Virus record (IMG/VR): IMGVR_UViG_3300022555_000004
Length of the DNA: 64,000 nt
Source of the DNA: a virus
Taxonomy: Duplodnaviria; Caudoviricetes
Reading direction: 5' to 3' (one strand)
The notes beneath the pieces were generated by a model. That model searched no databases. It was not told the origin of the DNA and worked only from the letters and a program-made list of their open reading frames with translations. Position 1 is the stretch's first letter. Each line of letters opens with the position of its first letter. Made by a program: the position numbers and the translations under genes. Shown here one piece after another: positions 2,879 through 58,600 of this stretch.

Positions 2879-4195
2879 TTATTTCTTTTTACTTACAGGA
2901 AGCGTTTTAATTTTAGACCAATCCCATACTATATCCGTTTCTTTTACATCTAACATGGCACACATTCGTAAAAATCCTTTTCGACCATGTTCTGTATCTA
3001 TGTCAGCATCAACTGCCTCTTTGTATATTTTTAGAGCATTCCATGATGACCATAGAGCTTTCCATTCTTTTTGTATATCATCATAACCCCATACATCATG
3101 ATCCCACATTTTCTCTGTCCATATTTCTGTCATACGGACAACAACTGTGAATAATTCGATTTTATTCATCAATCTGGCCATTTTATGTTCATATTCTTTT
3201 TTCTTATATGTCGGATCACATGCTAGTGATAAGTCGAATACATAGTGTGCCATAATGGATTTGATACGATCCCATTTTCTATGATAATTTTCAGCACCTA
3301 TATACCTAAACTCAATATATTCATTGGCAGAATTTAGGTGTTCTATGTTGATCGCCATATAGTGGTCAGCGGGATATTCTTTTTTCAATCCGGTCACATC
3401 AATCAATTTTGTGGCTAATTTTGGGGCATTTAATCTTATCAAGGAACGATTAACTGTATCATGTGCTGACCTAGCATATGTATTAAATTCTCTTGCTGCA
3501 AAAAAATTATAGATATACCCTTCATCCATGAATAGAGATAACTTAGTAATATCAATTGCTTCACCGAGATTAGGAACATTTTTCAATGACATACTGATAT
3601 GGAAGCCACATGCATCGTCTATCTCGGCAGCAGGGCCCATGTTGTTTATATACTCAAACACTTTTGGGCAAATTTCCAAAAATTCTTTTAGGGGCAGGAT
3701 AGGTGACACAATTTCCAGACCGTGCAATCCTAGTGACCCATCGGGTTTGATGACCCATTTTTTAGCCGACTTAACATTATGGTCATGTGTAATAATCATG
3801 TTTTTGAACGGTAGTGTTTCTAAGTTCAAAAAGTCTTTTATCAATTTTCTGAATAGTTGATCCTTGTCTATTTTGAGATTAGGATATACTTCATCAGGTG
3901 GTGGTATTTCATCACCTATTTCATATCCTGCTTCAACTGCCCATTCAGGTAAATTTGGTAAAGGTTCTGTATTATTATCTATTGATGTCCATGCTTCTAG
4001 TTTATCATCATATTCTTCTTGTTCGATTGCCATGTCCTGCATTTTATCAAACATATCAACTTGCTTTTCATACTTGTCTATGAACGGCGGCACTTTAAAT
4101 TCAAATTCAGCACCGACATATACGTTTGGATTAGTCAGGGCTTGACTTATATCTTGCTTAGATACTTTTTCTAATAGAAGTTCTCTTAATGTCAT
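2879..4195 (-). CDS. Putative amidoligase (COOH-NH2 ligase type 2 family)
   Basis: VGAEFEF, IKPDGSL, GLEIVSP, CGFHIS, HYMAIN and IEFR motifs. Confidence 0.8.
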   Translation of the reverse strand: MTLRELLLEKVSKQDISQALTNPNVYVGAEFEFKVPPFIDKYEKQVDMFDKMQDMAIEQEEYDDKLEAWTSIDNNTEPLPNLPEWAVEAGYEIGDEIPPPDEVYPNLKIDKDQLFRKLIKDFLNLETLPFKNMIITHDHNVKSAKKWVIKPDGSLGLHGLEIVSPILPLKEFLEICPKVFEYINNMGPAAEIDDACGFHISMSLKNVPNLGEAIDITKLSLFMDEGYIYNFFAAREFNTYARSAHDTVNRSLIRLNAPKLATKLIDVTGLKKEYPADHYMAINIEHLNSANEYIEFRYIGAENYHRKWDRIKSIMAHYVFDLSLACDPTYKKKEYEHKMARLMNKIELFTVVVRMTEIWTEKMWDHDVWGYDDIQKEWKALWSSWNALKIYKEAVDADIDTEHGRKGFLRMCAMLDVKETDIVWDWSKIKTLPVSKKK

Positions 4196-4265
4196 TTGTT
4201 ATACCTCTTGTTATTTTAATATTCTTATTTATGTCTTTACAATAGCTTTATGTTTTTCTAAATAA

Positions 4266-4342
4266 TAGAAGGTAATCCAGATGTGTGGACATACTGGAAA
4301 CAGCGGAGCGAACAGCTGCTGTCCCTTCTCATTCTATTTATA
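4266..4342 (-). ncRNA. Three-way-junction element A with TATAAATA late promoter (4335-4342), antisense to the adjacent GIY-YIG gene
   Basis: P1 AGAAGG/CCUUCU, P2 GACAGC/GCUGUU, P3 UCCAG/CUGGA; same fold as 9034-9113. Confidence 0.65.
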
Positions 4343-4356
4343 AGGAGCGACTGTCT

Positions 4357-5053
4357 ATGTCAAACAAAATTTTTGGTGTAATCTATAAAGCAACTAATCT
4401 TATTAATGGTAAATGTTATATTGGACAAACAATACGATTTAAAAAACGAAAATATGACCATATATTCTGGTCTATAAATGAACTAGATAATTTCTATTTT
4501 CATAATTCCATAAGAAAGCACGGCGTTGGTAATTTCAGTTGGGAAATTATTTATGAATGTGATGATAAATTGTTACTAAATGTAATGGAAACATTTAAAA
4601 TTATGACACATCATAGCCATGTTAGTGAAGGCAAAGGATATAATCTAACTTGGGGCGGTGATGTTATATATGGCAGACCTTGTTCAGAAGAAACTAAGGA
4701 AAAAATAAGGCAAACACAATTAGGTAAACATATTACTGATGAAACACGAATAAAAAATGTGTATTGCTCAACAAAACAGGCCCACAATATCAGAAGAAAC
4801 AAGAATAAAGAAGAAAACGTTTCGTCATTCAATTGACACTAAAACAAAAATGCGTGAAAATACAATAGGTTCTCTTAATGGGTTTTATGGTAAAAAACAC
4901 ACAGATGAAACTAAAGCAAAATGGAAAAATAGACCTGTTTGGAATAAGGGCATACCAAGATCAGAAGAAACAAAACAAAAAATACGTGAAACTAAGTTAC
5001 GAAACAAACGTTTTAACCTTCAATGTACTCTGGATGAACAAGTTGTTTTATAA
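4357..5053 (+). mobile_element. GIY-YIG homing endonuclease with NUMOD3 repeats, frameshifted at A6 run 4752-4757
   Basis: GVIY...CYIGQT, GYNLTWGGD, SEETK..I repeats; ORFs 4285-4836 and 4757-5053 join with one A removed; opposite strand to flanking genes. Confidence 0.85.
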
Positions 5054-7767: not shown

Positions 7768-8060
7768 AATTCAAACAATTCATCGTCTAATGTAATTTCA
7801 TATTCGTTGTATGGCATAACATGTGCTTTGCTTATGGCATATGTTGATAATCCTCTTGGTTCTACAATTCTATAACTTGACTCTGAACTAAATCCGGTTA
7901 CTATAAAAAATGGAACATCAAATCTATGGTCATATGATTGATATCCATACGATATGTTTGAATCTTTTATCCTAACAAACGACCCACTTTTAAAGTCTGG
8001 ATTGCTTCTAAGTTGTTTCAATACTTCTGGTTTAAATTTTACTTTTAACGTCATACACAT
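7764..8060 (-). CDS. LDDELFEL-tag family protein, subtype A
   Basis: Ends EITLDDELFEL*. Confidence 0.8.
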   Translation of the reverse strand: MCMTLKVKFKPEVLKQLRSNPDFKSGSFVRIKDSNISYGYQSYDHRFDVPFFIVTGFSSESSYRIVEPRGLSTYAISKAHVMPYNEYEITLDDELFEL

Positions 8061-8063
8061 TCC

Positions 8064-8303
8064 TTATAATTCAAACAATTTATCATCTAATGATATCACA
8101 AAAGGAAAAACCTCTACGAATGGATTGTCATCTGGCTTATATGTTACCATACTTAGACGGCCTTTTGTGTCACTTATTTTTACCTGACCATAGCCAAATT
8201 TATCATCTTTTATTATTATAAAATATGTCAATGATTTGAAATATTGACACTCTGGACAATTACAATCCATACAATCTTCTTTAAATTTATAATATCGTTC
8301 CAT
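8064..8303 (-). CDS. LDDELFEL-tag family protein, subtype B (CxCPxC)
   Basis: Ends ISLDDKLFEL*. Confidence 0.8.
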   Translation of the reverse strand: MERYYKFKEDCMDCNCPECQYFKSLTYFIIIKDDKFGYGQVKISDTKGRLSMVTYKPDDNPFVEVFPFVISLDDKLFEL

Positions 8304-9019
8304 TATTTTATCATTTCCATCAATGTATCAAAGTCAATAATGGTTACGCGCGACCTTTTCATTGATTCACTTATTTTTCTTTTATGTTCATCTGACATAG
8401 GGCCTCTTTTCATTCCTGTTCTACTTTTACTCATTTTTTCCTTTGTTTCTTTGGTCATTGGATGTTTATTTTTTGCTGATATTGACATTTTTTCTCTGGT
8501 TGTCAACGAAAATGTTTTATTGATAGCCGATTTACTCATTTTCTTTTTTGTTTCATCTGATTTTTTTCTGCCTAAAAGTGATATACTTATTTTTTTTCTT
8601 ACGTCCGATGGTATAGTTTTTCCAAACATGTAACTCAATTCACCAGTATATTTTCCTATCATTGATAATGACCGTTTTTCAATAATTTCTTTTGAAAATT
8701 TATATCCTTTAGGTATGCCATCTCCACCCCATGTAAGATTATACCCACCTTCTGTCCAATGAGAATGGTTTACAATAATTTTCATGGTTTCCATGACACC
8801 TAAAACTAAGGCATCATCACATTCATATAATATTTCCCATTTGAAATTACCAAGACCATACTTTTTAATAGCACGATGAAAATATGTATTGCTTTTACTT
8901 TCAACACTATCTTTATGCCCTTGTCTTCTTTTATGTAATGATTGTGTTGTTTTGCCAACATAACATTTACCGTTGATTAAATTTGTTGATTTATAAATAA
9001 TACACAATTGTTCTGACAT
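8303..9019 (-). mobile_element. GIY-YIG homing endonuclease with NUMOD3 repeats
   Basis: CIIY...CYVGKT, GYNLTWGGDG, SDETKKKMS repeats; start MSEQL with RBS. Confidence 0.9.
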
Positions 9020-9033
9020 AAGATATACCTCAC

Positions 9034-9113
9034 TATAAATAAGATGTGGAAGGGACAGCAGCAAACCTCACGCTGTTTTCGGTGTGTTGACGCACCCGAA
9101 TTACCTTCTACAT
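9034..9113 (+). ncRNA. Three-way-junction element B with TATAAATA late promoter (9034-9041), antisense to the adjacent GIY-YIG gene
   Basis: P1 AUGUGGAAGG/CCUUCUACAU, P2 GACAGC/GCUGUU, P3 UUCGG/CCGAA; covaries with element A. Confidence 0.65.
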
Positions 9114-9124
9114 GTATTTAGAGA

Positions 9125-10900
9125 TTACCTCAACATTTCTATAAGATCTTGAAAACTTATTATAGTAATATTCATGGTTTGCGCCTTTTTGTTTTTGATA
9201 CTGCCGCTATCGGAATCATCCGTCACCAAATAATCGGTGGATTTAGAAATACCTTTTACATATCCACCCTTGCTTGTTATCAATTGTGTAACTGCATCAC
9301 GTTTCATGGGCATTTTGCCAGTCAATGTGAATGTCAGTCCACTTATACTCGTTTTCTCTTTCATAATAAATTTCAATCCTTTCTCTTTCATAAAATTGTA
9401 AAGTTCGGCAAACTTATTTATATTTTCTACAAGGTTGTTAGAAAGAATATCTCCAACACCTTCTATACCATAGATGCCGTCTACGTTGAATAAATCATCA
9501 AAATTATATTTTTCTAAAATTGGTGTCGCCAATGTTTTACCAATACCACTTATACCAAAGGCTGCCAATAACTTATCAGGTGTAACCGATAGTGTTTTCT
9601 GGATTTCATAATAGACCTGTTCGGCCTTTTTGATACCAAATCCCCCAAGGGCAGACATTTCCAATTCATCCAATTCATACATTTCTTCAATAGAATTGAC
9701 ACCAAGATTTCTGACCGTTGTTTCGGTAATGTATTCAGACCCTAATGTTTTGAAAAAATGGGCAATCTGTCTTACCTTAGAATCATAACAATCCTCATTT
9801 TTACATACAAGGTCAACACCGATATGTTGTACACTACCACCACATGAAGGACAAACCTCCGGTGCGAAAATATCGAGAACTCGCTCGAAGACCTCTGTGA
9901 TGTAGGGTATCACACCACCACTACGGACAATACCAATTACGGCGCCCGTTCCAATTCCATTATCAAAAATGAAATCATAATTAAATCCGGTTGCTTTAGA
10001 GATTGTAACACCATCTAATTCAATCGGTTCAATATAAACCAAAGGTGTAATTTTGCCTGTACGTCCCAAATTCCATTCGACCTTATCAACAACTACTTTG
10101 ACTGCTTCTGTATTAACCTTGTATGCCACCTTATTTTCCGGTAACATAACATCTTCCCGTTCAGAATCATTATTCGTTAGAACAAGGCCATCAACATCAT
10201 AAGGCATGTATTTTGCGTTCATCAAAATCGTATTTAAGGTATCCACAATATCACTATCTTTTGAGTATTTTAATGTAGTGAACGGCGGAACTTGAAGACC
10301 AAGATTGACCATTGTGGACAATCGACTAATTTCGGTTGTAGGGATGCCCGTTTCACATTCCAATATTTCATAAAACATTGGATGTAACATTTCAACATGA
10401 TGAGCAAGTGCACCATTGACGCCGTTTCTACGATTTTTATAACCTAATTTGATATGGTCATCATTAAACAATAACAATTCACCCCTCAAAGAGATTCGAC
10501 TATCAATAACAAATTTGGGCATAATCTTTTTGATTTTATCCGTAATGTCCTGCCCTTCTTGACCATCGCCCCTTGTGGACGCAAATACAACTTCACCATT
10601 TTCAACAGTAACCATGAAGGATACACCATCAAGTTTATGGCTGACAACGATTTCCTTACCTTTTACAAACTTTTCAACTGTATCGGATTTTACCTTATCT
10701 AAGGAACCCAACACAAAGGGTAATTTGACCTTTTCGCCATCAACACTGGCACCGACTGTTTTGAAATATTGGTCATTAGGAAATTCGGACTTGGCCTGTT
10801 CCTTCAATAAATCATATTCAGTGTCAGTCAATGTCGTGACATCTTCATTGTAATATTCCTTATCATATTGTTTTAATTGTTCTAATATATTTTTTGTCAT
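9125..10900 (-). CDS. ligA: NAD-dependent DNA ligase
   Basis: KLDG motif I, TRGDG, Cys-containing Zn-finger region, HhH repeats, C-terminal BRCT. Confidence 0.96.
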   Translation of the reverse strand: MTKNILEQLKQYDKEYYNEDVTTLTDTEYDLLKEQAKSEFPNDQYFKTVGASVDGEKVKLPFVLGSLDKVKSDTVEKFVKGKEIVVSHKLDGVSFMVTVENGEVVFASTRGDGQEGQDITDKIKKIMPKFVIDSRISLRGELLLFNDDHIKLGYKNRRNGVNGALAHHVEMLHPMFYEILECETGIPTTEISRLSTMVNLGLQVPPFTTLKYSKDSDIVDTLNTILMNAKYMPYDVDGLVLTNNDSEREDVMLPENKVAYKVNTEAVKVVVDKVEWNLGRTGKITPLVYIEPIELDGVTISKATGFNYDFIFDNGIGTGAVIGIVRSGGVIPYITEVFERVLDIFAPEVCPSCGGSVQHIGVDLVCKNEDCYDSKVRQIAHFFKTLGSEYITETTVRNLGVNSIEEMYELDELEMSALGGFGIKKAEQVYYEIQKTLSVTPDKLLAAFGISGIGKTLATPILEKYNFDDLFNVDGIYGIEGVGDILSNNLVENINKFAELYNFMKEKGLKFIMKEKTSISGLTFTLTGKMPMKRDAVTQLITSKGGYVKGISKSTDYLVTDDSDSGSIKNKKAQTMNITIISFQDLIEMLR

Positions 10901-17092: not shown

Positions 17093-17284
17093 TTATTTTA
17101 CTATTTTTCTTATAAATCGTTCTGTTATTCTGTATGCAAAAGAACAAATAGCAACACCAACACATATCAAAACTATGATAACTGCAAAAATTCCTGTTAA
17201 ACAACCGATTAACAGGAATATACTTAGTAATACTATGTATATGAATGGATGTTCTAATAGTTTTATTTTATATTCCTTTTTCAT
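17093..17284 (-). CDS. Hypothetical membrane protein
   Basis: Long hydrophobic stretch. Confidence 0.6.
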   Translation of the reverse strand: MKKEYKIKLLEHPFIYIVLLSIFLLIGCLTGIFAVIIVLICVGVAICSFAYRITERFIRKIVK

Positions 17285-17994
17285 ACAATTTCCTTATACA
17301 TATTTTTTTTACTATTTTTTTTACTATTTTTTCTGCCTTTGAACCACCCTTGTTTCAAATAATAATCAAGGTCGCTTTTTATGATTTTTTTATTTTCAAT
17401 GATGTTATATATCCAACATGTTCCGAATTGTGAATTTTTTTGCCCTTCATGTAATCCTGTATGTTTTTCACTCATTTTTCTCTTAGTTTCTTCTGAATGA
17501 CGTTTGCCTTTAAAAACATTCCCTGCGATTTCACTTCTTTTTTGTTTTATATCAGGAGAACCATTATGCGCCCATGATTCTAATCGTTTGTCTATTCCCA
17601 ACATACTAATTATTGATTTATAATTTTCACCATATTTTTCTTTCAATTTTATATCAGCGGTTATTCTTCCTTTTTTACATCGTTCAATATGATCTTTTGA
17701 ACCATCGTTTAAATAATCCCAACCACCTTCGTCACCTCGTTTGAGATTATACGTATTACCGGACTTCAAATATTCGTCTGTAACCAATTCTGATTCTTTG
17801 TCATCCATGTCCTTTTTGTTATCAAACACATGAAGAACCGTTTTCTCAAAACAATCTTTGCCATACTTGTTTATGGCACGTTTCAAATATTTTCCTGAAC
17901 CTAAGTAATTATCATAGATATTGTCTGTTTGATGTTTACCTATATATATTTTACCGTTCGCCTTGTTTCTAACTTCATATACGATATAGTTCAT
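17281..17994 (-). mobile_element. Seg-like GIY-YIG homing endonuclease within the tRNA cluster
   Basis: YIVY...KIYIGKH, YLGSG, NUMOD3 HSEETKRKMS; sense TATAAATA at 18014-18021; paralog of 31942-32610. Confidence 0.9.
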
Positions 17995-18046
17995 AATTTT
18001 TATCTCCTATATCTATTTATATAAAATTAAAAATTTGTAAATGAAA

Positions 18047-25430: not shown

Positions 25431-26134
25431 TATACTTTACCTCTGAAAGATGTTTTCAAATCAAAGCCATGCCCCATGATTTTATACTTATCGTCAATCT
25501 TTATTTCAGGCATCATATCAGGTGATTCCTTCATTACATTACCCACGAAATAAGACAAGTGTTGATACATTTCATTTGCTGATATAAATGAAGCAACCCC
25601 GATTTCACCAAGTTTTGGTGTCATATCGTGTATTATGATACTGTTTCTATATGTATTGAACATGAATACAGGGGATCCAACTATTCGGCATAAAGCTATA
25701 AGTGTTTCATCTTTATGATTTATATAATCAGAATATTGTGGCCCTTTTCCCCACCAACTATATTTTGGTTCTTTGATGTCAGATTTTTTGACAAGTCTAT
25801 ATGGTTCATCTGATTTCATTTTTATTTGTGTGAAAAAAATATCACCAACAACTATACCTCTTACTTCTGGATTATAATCATTACGACCATCAAAATATGA
25901 ACCATAGAGGTCATAAGCATTTCCAACACTGTCACATCTTGTTTTCCATTGATCATCTAAAGTTGTATAGTATCGGTGTCCTTGTTGAGCATAACGTATA
26001 AATTCACGTCTAATATCAATTTGGTCAGCGATATTTTGTTTATAAGGTCTTACATAAACAATTTTTGGATCACCGCCACCGTATATATGGGCAATGTGGT
26101 CGTAATAATCGCGAAAGTTGCTTTTAATTATCAT
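25430..26134 (-). CDS. Hypothetical phage protein
   Basis: MII.SNFRDYYD N-terminus and DK.KI..HGFD.K.SFR C-terminus. Confidence 0.8.
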   Translation of the reverse strand: MIIKSNFRDYYDHIAHIYGGGDPKIVYVRPYKQNIADQIDIRREFIRYAQQGHRYYTTLDDQWKTRCDSVGNAYDLYGSYFDGRNDYNPEVRGIVVGDIFFTQIKMKSDEPYRLVKKSDIKEPKYSWWGKGPQYSDYINHKDETLIALCRIVGSPVFMFNTYRNSIIIHDMTPKLGEIGVASFISANEMYQHLSYFVGNVMKESPDMMPEIKIDDKYKIMGHGFDLKTSFRGKV

Positions 26135-26683
26135 GTTTGTTTCCCTTCTAAATATCGTTTTTTAGCATCACGCATTTTTTGTTTGGCTTCTTCTGTATGT
26201 TTTTTTCCTGTCATACCAACACGATTTTTACACATATTTTCTATATGTTTTTTTGATAAATGTCTGCCTTCTAAGCTTTTGCTTATATTATTTTTTTGCG
26301 CTGGTGTTCTTTTTTTCCCTGTTATTGCTTTTACTCTTTTTTCTACCCAACTATCGGTTTGTTTTTTGCCAATTTGTCTAATACTTTTCTTTTTATTTTG
26401 TTCATCAGAAAATTTATACCCATATGTTCCGTCACCACCCCATGTCAAGTTATACCCATTGCCTTCACTAACATGGCTATGATTTACAATAATTTTGAAT
26501 GTTTCCATCACATTCAAAACTAAAATATCATCACATTCATAAATAATTTCCCATTTAAAATTGTCGTGGCCATATTTGTTTAGAGCATTATAAAAATAGA
26601 TCGATATGCCCTCTTTATGTGTACAACATAGGTGTTGATTTTTTCTTTTCTTTAATGTTCCTGTAGTTAGTTTTTATAATCAT
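26131..26683 (-). pseudogene. 5'-truncated GIY-YIG/NUMOD3 endonuclease
   Basis: FKWEIIYECDD, GYNLTWGGDG and NUMOD3 present; GIY and YIG motifs missing; preceded by MIIKTNYR, a copy of the downstream gene start. Confidence 0.7.
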
Positions 26684-30364: not shown

Positions 30365-30438
30365 TGGTGCAACCGGCGGGAGTCGAACCCGCCTTTACTG
30401 GTTAAAGCCAGTTACTAAACCAGATCAGTTACGGCTGC
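30365..30438 (-). tRNA. tRNA-Lys (TTT)-like with 6-nt anticodon loop (possible 1-nt deletion error)
   Basis: ACUGG-CUUUAA-CCAGU; other arms canonical; CCA. Confidence 0.7.
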
Positions 30439-31941: not shown

Positions 31942-32610
31942 CTATATTTTAATTTTTCGTCCTTTATGCCACCCTTTTTGTAAATATTCATCAATGTTGT
32001 TTTTATCAACTCTAGTACATTCCACATCATTATAAATCCAACATTTGCCGTACATAGGATTTTTAATACCAGACCTATTGATGTTTTTTTGCGTTTGTTT
32101 CATTTTTTCTTTTGTTTCATTTGTGTGGTGTTTGCCTTTAAATGTTTTACCGGAATTTTCTGATCTTCGTTTTTTAATTTCAGGATCATTACTTTTTACA
32201 TATGTCAAAAGTGTTTTTTCATAAGATTTTTTTCCATTTTCACTTCTTTCATTTTTTGTAAGAAGGGCAAGACCATTATCATATCCTTTTTTACCAACCT
32301 CTGTGGCTATTTTTGGATTTTTATATATATGATCCCAACCACCTTCACCGCCTCGTTTCAGATTATAAATCATTTTGTTTTTTACTTCATCATCTGTAAC
32401 CAATTCGGCTTCTTTGTCATCCATGTCTTTTTTGTTATCAAAGACATGAAGGACAATTTTCTCAAAACAATCTTTGCCATACTTGTTTATGGCATGTTTT
32501 AAAATCCTACCAGAACCAAGATATTCATCATAGATATTATCCGTTTGATGTTTACCTATATATGTTTTGCCATTCACCTTGTTTCTAACTTCATATATTG
32601 TGTAGTACAT
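31942..32610 (-). mobile_element. Seg-like GIY-YIG homing endonuclease
   Basis: YTIY...KTYIGKH, YLGSG, NUMOD3; sense TATAAATA at 32631-32638. Confidence 0.9.
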
Positions 32611-32671
32611 AATTTTTTTACCTCTACACCTATTTATAAAAAGTTCGATACTTAGTAAACAAATAATTAAA

Positions 32672-32744
32672 TGGGTGATCGGAGGAAATCGAATCCTCGT
32701 ACTTGGGGCCACGACCCAAGGTTCTTCCATTGAACTACGACCAC
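32672..32744 (-). tRNA. tRNA-His (GTG)
   Basis: UUGGG-UC-GUG-GC-CCCAA; C73. Confidence 0.85.
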
Positions 32745-32794
32745 ATCATGATTATTTGGAACACCCAAAGGCTCAACAAATAATGCTGTTCGTT

Positions 32795-39395: not shown

Positions 39396-39866
39396 TCGCC
39401 TAAGTTGGAAACCAATAAAGTTGTGGTTCATTGGAAGGATCATTTAGCCTACCAACCGTTCCGCGGATTTCATAGTTAGTATCAATTACATATTTTTTCC
39501 TGTAATTGTAGGGTATTCAGCTTATTTCCCCTAGAAGGAATTGACCTTCACTATATGTCCACATACTTTTTGTTTCCGAGATAGGATAACATGGGCAGTT
39601 ACGCCCAATAACACCTATCGTTTTGATTGATAATGGGAATCGAACCCATATAAACGATGTAGTATCGTTTGTTTGACCATATTAAACTACATCAATCAGT
39701 TTACTGATACTTGGGTGTTGCACCCGCAACGTATATCTACGCGTCACTGCGACTTATCAGTATTGTATGGTTGGGGTGCTGGATGTTTGCGATCCAGATC
39801 CTGACTGTTTTTTTGAGAGGAATTGCGCCTCTATTGTAGGATAACTATTAATTTTTCCCAACTCAT
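39145..39866 (-). ncRNA. Candidate ~720-nt structured ncRNA with serial T-loop hairpins
   Basis: TTGACA-17-TATACT promoter at 39872-39900; at least 5 T-loop-like hairpins; terminator-like CUUAUC-UGUU-GAUAAG...U6 near 39150; no ORF. Confidence 0.55.
39625..39696 (-). tRNA. Degenerate tRNA-like module with CUA at the anticodon position
   Basis: AUUGAUG/UAUCAAU acceptor, GUUU/AAAC D stem, AACGA-UACUACA-UCGUU, UUCGAUU T loop; A33, C37, no CCA. Confidence 0.5.
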
Positions 39867-58012: not shown

Positions 58013-58600
58013 ATGAATAATAAAAAATTCTTTGGAAAAGATAATTCAAATTATAAACACGGAAAAACGGTAAAAGGGTATAAAGATTTGTGTGTCTGTG
58101 GAAGAGAAAAAGATGTAAGAGCCAAACAATGTTCGTTATGCGCACATAGAGGGTATCCGAAAGAAAAAGAAAAATTTAGAGAAGAACAATTGAAATTGAT
58201 AATTGAAAATATTCAACACCACAACTCTTTTCTTGAATTATCTAAAGTAATCGGAGTTCCTAGAAAAACAATTAAAATCATAACCGACACATATAATATA
58301 GAAATAGGGCATTTCAAACCATGTGCTCAACGGCCAACATCATTTGAAGATATTTTTAAAAATGACGGCGGAGTTAGAAGCGGCAAAGTAAAAAATTATA
58401 TAATCAAACATAATATATTAGAATATAAATGTGATATATGTGGATTGAATGGCGAGAGGATGGGCAATAAATTGACATTACATTTAGATCATAAAGACGG
58501 TGTATGCGGTAATAATACAATTGAAAATTTAAGATTTTTATGCCCAAATTGTCATGAACAAACAGATACAAATAAAGGCAAAAACAAGAAATATCATTAA
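58013..58600 (+). mobile_element. HNH homing endonuclease
   Basis: C.ICG...LHLDHKDG...NN.IENLRFLCPNCH.QT; late promoter at 57975. Confidence 0.9.

Follow-up and report, generated by a model that had tools for sequence, protein, structure and literature searches.

A candidate family of three-way-junction RNAs beside homing endonuclease genes of T4-like phages, with loops complementary to the endonuclease ribosome-binding site

Phage genomes commonly carry homing endonucleases, which are selfish genes, and how phages tolerate them is, to our knowledge, known only from a few T-even hairpins. In the IS10 RNA-OUT/RNA-IN pair, and for the type I antitoxin RNAs of the IstR-1/tisB and OhsC/shoB systems, a small stable RNA pairs with the translation-initiation region of an adjacent selfish or toxic gene. 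HEARO and OMEGA RNAs are guide RNAs bound by RuvC/HNH nucleases (IscB, TnpB), and they include a DNA-matching guide segment. The T-even homing endonuclease leaders (those of I-TevI, I-TevII, I-TevIII, segB and Aeh1 mobE) form hairpins that sequester the ribosome-binding site and are associated with late promoters (PMC2988022). In the T4 system, the site is part of a simple mRNA hairpin, and so is the late promoter (PMC2988022). In Aeromonas phage 25, a hairpin is found upstream of seg43(25) (PMC2988022). An antisense RNA, CfrI, is encoded by cyanophage S-PM2 (Millard et al. 2010); it is described in PMC2984593 as ~225 nt long, overlapping both the endonuclease ORF and psbA, and having no known function. 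The antisense control of toxic and selfish genes has been reviewed (PMC3874152).

The locus described here lies in a 64,000-nt stretch of viral DNA, which is the whole of the sequence analysed and is called the window below. Among the genes of the window are those for gp44/gp62-type clamp-loader subunits, an RNA ligase, NrdA and a primase, along with 22 tRNA genes, a content in keeping with a large T4-like phage. A gp55 late sigma factor was not found among the window ORFs scanned. The tRNA genes span 16847-39697 on the minus strand; one of them, at 39624-39697, has a CUA (amber-reading) anticodon, and another, at 30365-30438, is odd in that ARAGORN assigns it a two-letter anticodon. Sequencing runs containing the window DNA come from lake and freshwater metagenomes only, and no RNA run is among those listed.

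Two genes of the window, A and B, match phrog_314 and phrog_5123, annotated as "homing endonuclease with GIY-YIG motif". The GIY and YIG motifs are visible in both translations, and Pfam detects NUMOD3 in gene B and, for gene A, in the shifted frame. The Pfam GIY-YIG model does not reach E ≤ 0.001 with either gene; it does so with the relatives at loci L004 and L256. On the strength of a GIY...YIG N-terminal domain and a NUMOD3 motif, the predicted products are assigned to the GIY-YIG homing endonucleases. The catalytic part of gene A stops at 4836; its NUMOD3 DNA-binding part is read in the +1 frame, at 4757-5053. Gene A would be either a pseudogene or a gene that requires frameshifting. The features of the two loci are collected in Table 1, together with the loop and site sequences of five related loci.

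Table 1. Features of RNA copies A and B and their surroundings in the window, and loop and site sequences of five further loci
Feature	Position	Strand	Remarks
Divergent intergenic region	4196-4356		between amidoligase-like gene and GIY-YIG gene A
Amidoligase-like gene, 438 aa	2879-4195	-	flanks RNA copy A
GIY-YIG homing endonuclease gene A (SegE-like), predicted	4357..4836	+	frame break
Gene A Shine-Dalgarno region GGAGCGA	4344..4350	+	proposed loop target
TATAAATA box (T4-type late-promoter motif)	4335..4342	-	5 nt upstream of copy A P1
RNA copy A, three-way junction, 63 nt, predicted	4267..4329	-	core 4329->4267
Copy A P1	4329-4324 pairs 4272-4267	-	AGAAGG/CCUUCU
Copy A J1/2 GAC	4323-4321	-	
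Copy A P2	4320-4315 pairs 4304-4299	-	
Copy A P2-loop anti-ribosome-site UCGCUCC	4305..4311	-	complementary to GGAGCGA
Copy A P3	4298-4276	-	UCCAG..CUGGA
Copy A J3/1 UUA	4275-4273	-	
Gene-sense box TCTAAATA, cassette A outer edge	4257..4264	+	imperfect late-promoter motif
GIY-YIG/NUMOD3 homing endonuclease gene B, 238 aa, predicted	8303..9019	-	intact
Gene B Shine-Dalgarno region GUGAGGU	9033-9027	-	
TATAAATA box	9034..9041	+	6 nt upstream of copy B core P1; 2 nt upstream of extended P1
RNA copy B, three-way junction, predicted	9044..9113	+	core 9048-9109, P1 extended by AUGU/ACAU
Copy B core P1	9048-9053 pairs 9104-9109	+	
Copy B J1/2	9054-9056	+	
Copy B P2	9057-9062 pairs 9072-9077	+	
Copy B P2-loop anti-ribosome-site ACCUCAC	9065..9071	+	complementary to GUGAGGU
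Copy B P3	9078-9100	+	UUCGG..CCGAA
Copy B J3/1	9101-9103	+	
Gene-sense box TCTAAATA, cassette B outer edge	9115..9122	-	2 nt from ligA stop codon
NAD-dependent DNA ligase gene (ligA)	9125-10900	-	stop codon 9125-9127
L246			P2 loop UUAGCUCC; ribosome-binding site GGAGCUAA
L250			P2 loop AUAACUCC; ribosome-binding site GGAGUUAU
L265			P2 loop GUUCUCCUA; ribosome-binding site UAGGAGAAC
L266a			P2 loop UAUACCUCAC; ribosome-binding site GUGAGGUAUA
L328			P2 loop AUAGCUCC; ribosome-binding site GGAGCUAU

A preliminary description of the window, made from the sequence, had claimed that a structured RNA with a three-way junction lies just upstream of gene A and that a second copy of the same architecture lies at 9034-9113. 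Both copies do fold in this way and do so better than shuffled sequence, the predicted energies being -24.3 kcal/mol for copy A and -29.6 kcal/mol for copy B (z -3.1 and -3.7). The compensatory change between the P3 helices (UCCAG..CUGGA in copy A, UUCGG..CCGAA in copy B) and the UUA junction, J3/1, are as first reported. The ribosome-binding site had been placed outside the fold, and it lies 3' of the fold in both window copies; what that description missed is the P2 loop complementary to it. The two copies are alike from the endonuclease start codon across the fold to a TATTTAGA motif and are divergent beyond. Thus, the element belongs to the endonuclease cassette. A covariance model run over the whole window with its filters off finds only copies A and B (83 and 75 bits, the next best hit scoring 10 bits).

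Homologs were sought by exact-pattern scans of viral and metagenome contigs, followed by covariance models R1-R3. The more divergent members came from the same contigs, from further pattern matches, from loci reached via the endonuclease proteins and from whole contigs. The resulting family has 38 distinct sequences on about 30 contigs from lake, sludge and digester-type metagenomes. P3 was absent from every search pattern, and all nine of its pairs co-vary. In the 38-sequence alignment, which was fitted to the model and so leans towards the structure, 94.4% of cells pair, and both partners have changed in 19 of 21 pairs; the paired fraction is 72% in shuffles and 36-51% when the partners are slid. 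When 22 sequences are aligned by MAFFT, 95.9% of cells pair, and 16 of the 21 pairs have changed on both sides. The conserved core reads AAGG-GAC-AG...UU-U...A-UUA-CCUU.

The P1 helix first proposed, AGAAGG/CCUUCU, stands. The P2 register proposed with it, GACAGC/GCUGUU, was rejected, as it breaks in divergent members; the covariation of 22-38 homologs supports a register shifted by 3 nt, AGCAGC/GCUGUU, in which GAC becomes the junction between P1 and P2. With this shift, compensatory changes such as AGCGGUG/CACCGUU, AGUGG/CCAUU and UUUGGU/ACCAAA come into view.

No match to a described RNA was found. An Rfam 15 scan of the window at the gathering thresholds gives tRNAs only, and at E ≤ 10 the segment 4150-4450 has no Rfam 15 match. 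GenBank phage records give no match by megablast (7 kb) or by blastn (the element). Bacterial and archaeal genome contigs yield 46 pattern matches, none of which is a real member by the covariance model; L272 and L277 are weak false matches. The loose DNA patterns produced mostly chance matches among the matches listed in two scans. It seems rather probable that the element represents an undescribed RNA family, a three-way junction of about 65 nt found with free-standing homing endonuclease genes in one lineage of uncultured T4-like phages. Copies can be numerous in one genome: a 204-kb viral contig (89% complete) carries six (L479, L482, L484-L487), of which five point away from the endonuclease gene and one, L486, is its leader, and a 244-kb contig (97% complete) carries three.

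The strand that folds is indicated by the wobble pairs. A P2 G.U pair is found in 35 of the 38 sequences and, over all helices with the P3 loop-closing pair excluded, there are 40 G.U cells and no A.C cell. It follows that the folding strand is the one with the sequence GGGAC...UUACC, which in the window is antisense to the GIY-YIG genes, as originally assigned. Folding energy shows no strand preference (-22.1 vs -22.4 kcal/mol). At 33 loci, both window copies among them, the RNA points away from the nuclease gene; these are termed antisense-type. At five loci (L473, L477, L415, L486 and L480), three of whose members score only 26-35 bits, the RNA is the nuclease gene's own leader, and these are termed sense-type.

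Box-like motifs flank the fold. The preliminary description had a late promoter pointing away from the endonuclease gene and, indeed, a T4-type late-promoter box precedes the RNA in both window copies in that direction. In the family, the RNA-strand box ends in TAAATA and is mostly found 4-6 nt before P1, with two outliers at 8 and 10 nt. At antisense-type loci, this box is a perfect TATAAATA in 20 of 33 cases and fits NATAAATA in 26; by inspection, it is a perfect TATAAATA at four of the five sense-type loci. The seven antisense-type boxes that depart from NATAAATA do so at position 2 in six cases (TCTAAATA or CCTAAATA) and as TATAAGTA in one. These should be weaker T4-type late promoters; at six of these seven loci the gene-sense box is perfect. 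The gene-sense box sits at the far edge of the cassette at antisense-type loci and is a perfect TATAAATA in 18 of 22, the two window copies having TCTAAATA.

Pairing of the flanking TAAATA/TATTTA boxes as an extension of P1 was considered and rejected. The boxes stay unpaired in the consensus folds, and a variant in one is not compensated in the other; they are therefore taken to be signals rather than part of a stem. A T4 late-promoter box covers approximately -13 to -6. With the spacing between box and P1, this position would put the start of the RNA at, or a few nucleotides from, the base of P1.

The motif TATAAATA occurs 25 times in the window, against 14 expected, and several of these copies lie directly 5' of a Shine-Dalgarno sequence and start codon. 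Three further GIY-YIG-like genes and one HNH gene in the window (17281-18021, 31942-32745, 58013-58600 and 26134-26673) have no RNA. Three of these four have a gene-sense TATAAATA box directly 5' of the Shine-Dalgarno sequence (at 17994, ~32600 and 58013), and the gene at 26134-26673 looks N-terminally truncated.

The variable part of the RNA is the key to our interpretation. At all 33 antisense-type loci, the P2 loop shows complementarity to the own gene's ribosome-binding site, the longest match averaging 7.4 nt with a range of 5-10 nt, a short pairing. Complementarity between loop and site was never a search criterion. Among the 24 loci whose sites differ, loops match their own site over 7.50 nt, as compared to 4.34 nt when loops and sites are re-paired, and none of 5000 permutations reaches the observed value. 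The predicted duplex of loop and site has -12.6 kcal/mol for own pairs vs -6.2 kcal/mol. The matched flanks extend beyond the GGAG/GAGG core and vary from locus to locus (CGA, CUAA, CAAA, UUAU, AAC and others). At L328, the match is kept on a P2 stem of wholly different sequence. The RNA thus shares one feature with antisense or type I antitoxin-like control, complementarity to the translation-initiation region of its target. By eye, no anti-Shine-Dalgarno sequence is seen in the first ~50 nt of the gene A ORF.

These data bear on the possibility that the functional RNA is the gene-sense strand. That is, the endonuclease mRNA would begin at the outer TATAAATA, and its leader would act as a stabiliser, a standby site or a decoy, with a loop that mimics the Shine-Dalgarno sequence. 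The high proportion of perfect gene-sense boxes, 18 of 22 at the cassette edge, is in line with such a leader, the sense strand folds about as stably, and T4 endonuclease genes with their own late promoters and leader hairpins have precedent (PMC2988022). Against it, the helices supported by covariation contain 40 G.U cells and no A.C cell and would therefore be mismatched in places on the sense strand, one such mismatch being almost invariant and inside P2. Were the loop a mimic, there would be no reason for its flanks to follow the real site beyond the Shine-Dalgarno core. Moreover, the five true leaders keep the RNA orientation, GGGAC...UUACC, with a loop that is complementary, not identical, to the site. 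Finally, the sense-strand folds leave the site unsequestered: in 14 loci so folded, they do not consistently pair it, which upholds the contrast with T4-style site-burying hairpins drawn at the outset. We hold a gene-sense function to be unlikely and prefer the antisense strand as the functional RNA.

The sense-type loci provide a second line of evidence. Here, the RNA has the same orientation and lies on the gene's strand as its 5' leader, with the ribosome-binding site 22-28 nt downstream. The loop that matches the site is now that of P3, which contains its reverse complement over 8 nt in L473, 6 nt in L477, 7 nt in L415, 12 nt in L486 and 7 nt in L480. The P2 loops of these five loci have no match to the ribosome-binding site; L480 has an extra 8-nt P2 match to sequence just upstream of the site, and it is this match that was scored in the statistics. 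Matches to own sites average 8.2 nt vs 5.2 nt for cross pairs, and the observed sum is reached by none of 44 derangements. The 12-nt match of L486 is reached in none of 2000 shuffles; taken singly, two of the matches, of 6 nt and 7 nt, are not significant when compared with shuffled sites. Scoring the entire sense-type element against the site with RNAduplex did not discriminate, as the pyrimidine-rich P1 strand pairs with any purine-rich site, and position-specific matches were scored in its place.

To summarize, the loop is, on the gene's strand, a copy of the site where the RNA is encoded on the opposite strand, and the complement of the site where the RNA is encoded on the same strand; in both arrangements the RNA can therefore pair with the site on the endonuclease mRNA. 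Such a strand-dependent pattern would be hard to explain except by RNA-RNA pairing.

With moderate confidence, we propose that endonuclease cassettes of these phages carry an RNA of ~65 nt that has its own late-promoter box and an anti-ribosome-site loop and that limits translation of the nuclease. The proposal rests on comparison, namely on structure, strand bias, boxes and covarying complementarity, from which we infer promoter activity, the RNA ends and repression. The steps would be as follows. The RNA would be transcribed from its own T4-type late promoter (TATAAATA), starting at or near the base of P1. In the antisense-type arrangement, the P2 loop would pair in trans with the Shine-Dalgarno sequence of the endonuclease mRNA and block ribosome loading; this RNA would also be fully complementary to the leader of any endonuclease mRNA begun at the far, gene-sense TATAAATA box. 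In the sense-type arrangement, the P3 loop would occlude the ribosome-binding site in cis. In either case, translation of a potentially harmful selfish nuclease would presumably be kept low or timed. We speculate that the conserved junction core, in which one G.U is nearly invariant, probably serves to present the loop or to bind a factor.

Another possibility is that the element merely punctuates the cassette, acting as a terminator or insulator with outward promoters that shield neighbouring genes, the RNA itself regulating nothing. The element does lie at cassette edges (copy B is 4 nt after the ligA stop), its outward box would feed a neighbouring gene in copy A, L001, L484 and L497-L499, and it persists beside decayed endonuclease genes. 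A terminator had also been raised at the outset as the alternative to a functional RNA. However, a consensus scan finds no intrinsic terminator at copy A or copy B, whichever strand is read, and a U-tract is lacking. Nor does a terminator need a conserved three-way junction, or a loop that tracks 24 different sites. Punctuation as the sole role is thus improbable in our estimation, and a regulatory RNA is preferred.

The persistence just mentioned deserves attention. An intact element with a matching loop is found beside a frame-broken or truncated endonuclease gene at window copy A, L250, L253, L265 and L251b, which is unexpected if control of that gene is the only function. It hints at an additional role, e.g., as a late promoter for a neighbouring gene in divergent arrangements like that of copy A; recent decay is an equally good explanation. 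In the two divergent arrangements seen first, the RNA is followed by the amidoligase-like gene in the window (2879-4195) and by a gene for a RimK-type ATP-grasp/Zn-protease at L001 (1779-3203). The late-promoter box of the RNA would also drive these two genes, the RNA then being their 5' leader. At L251 (7792-9631), two ORFs make up a split helicase gene, with the Walker A half at 8942-9631 and the DEVH half at 7792-8676. The 265 nt between the halves hold an intact RNA copy and a 21-codon GIY-YIG stump. This element has outlived its endonuclease.

The preliminary description had conceived of nuclease and RNA as one mobile unit. In this it was correct: the two travel together as one cassette, and the RNA adjoins nuclease genes at 38 of 38 loci. 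The linkage is not specific to GIY-YIG genes, since the partners belong to at least four nuclease families. They include SegE-like GIY-YIG enzymes, LEM-3-like GIY-YIG enzymes, zinc-finger proteins of phrog_559/681 ("HNH/homing endonuclease"), one EndoVII-like and one HNH protein. The genes on the far side vary from locus to locus.

The same description had likened the unit to HEARO/OMEGA, with the RNA as a cofactor or guide of the nuclease. The tight physical linkage at all 38 loci is what such a partnership would give. The analogy is not supported by the rest of the evidence. The partners come from several families, as listed, and IscB, IsrB or TnpB types are not among them; GIY-YIG, NUMOD3, HNH, EndoVII-like and phrog_559 proteins are found instead. 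Most close relatives of these nucleases lack the RNA: it is present at 4 distinct loci among the 85 closest SegE-like relatives and at 7 among 80 LEM-3-like loci, i.e., in ~5-9% of the closest relatives, and, of 20 more large phage contigs that carry related endonuclease genes, 19 do not have it. Such a distribution makes an obligatory cofactor or guide very unlikely. In place of a variable, DNA-matching guide segment, the variable loop matches the gene's own ribosome-binding site and no DNA target. In addition, GIY-YIG and HNH homing enzymes read DNA via protein domains such as NUMOD3, and this DNA-recognition domain is present here. We give a cofactor or guide role hardly any credence. The variety of at least four partner families, together with the absence of the RNA from most close nuclease relatives, argues that the RNA is probably a portable translation-control module, not an OMEGA-like guide.

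Modular behaviour is also seen at L246 and L252, which agree in RNA, boxes and ribosome-binding site as far as the start codon and encode different nucleases. In these two loci (L246:1380-1500 and L252:5695-5810, from one metagenome), the promoter-RNA-promoter-ribosome-binding-site segment is almost base-identical; L246 continues into a LEM-3-like GIY-YIG gene, and L252 into an EndoVII-like HNH gene, two unrelated nucleases. Recombination appears to have taken place exactly at the start codon.

A broader and more tentative suggestion is that the RNA may be a portable scaffold for a programmable repressor. It would consist of a core that binds a factor or stabilises itself and of an exchangeable loop "written" to the adjacent site, acting in trans through P2 or in cis through P3. 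RNA and nuclease would then form an antitoxin-like pair that lets unrelated homing endonucleases settle in phage genomes. If the proposed regulation is true, a distinct RNA family offers a solution to the tolerance of homing endonucleases different from the T-even hairpins: a conserved scaffold with a short, re-targetable anti-ribosome-site loop. This scaffold, common to at least four unrelated nuclease families and used both in trans and in cis, would be an addition to Rfam and would suggest a compact natural design for programmable translational repression. The result shows, in addition, that cassettes exchange regulatory modules as well as nuclease ORFs, the start codon being the point of exchange.

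How, then, does the element compare with the known systems? Like the T-even hairpins, it is proposed to restrain endonuclease translation by RNA pairing at the Shine-Dalgarno sequence, and it is accompanied by TATAAATA late promoters; the five sense-type loci would follow the T-even principle in cis. Unlike those hairpins, it has a conserved three-way junction, and the site is outside the fold and would be reached by a loop. The promoters differ in place as well: the boxes bracket the entire fold, on both strands and mostly 4-6 nt beyond P1, rather than lying inside a hairpin. At 33 of 38 loci, moreover, the RNA is encoded on the strand opposite the gene, behind a promoter box of its own, and so must act in trans. 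The resemblance to seg43(25) is that of a stable structure immediately upstream of the site of a free-standing endonuclease gene, the site not being contained in it. The structure at seg43(25) differs in being one hairpin, for which neither loop complementarity nor a family has been reported. CfrI is, like the RNA proposed here, an antisense RNA associated with the homing endonuclease of a T4-like phage; it is not a three-way junction with an anti-ribosome-site loop.

With the HEARO and OMEGA RNAs, the element shares a structured RNA encoded beside a mobile nuclease gene. It differs in having no guide segment, in that its nucleases are unrelated to IscB and TnpB, and in being dispensable for most relatives of those nucleases. 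The likeness to IS10 RNA-OUT, or to a divergent type I antitoxin, lies in the adjacent or facing promoter and in the pairing proposed at the initiation region. Those RNAs pair via overlap or long complementary stretches. In contrast, the RNA described here would start beyond the site, carries a transposed anti-ribosome-site segment of 5-10 nt in a loop, and belongs to a scaffold that is also used in cis.
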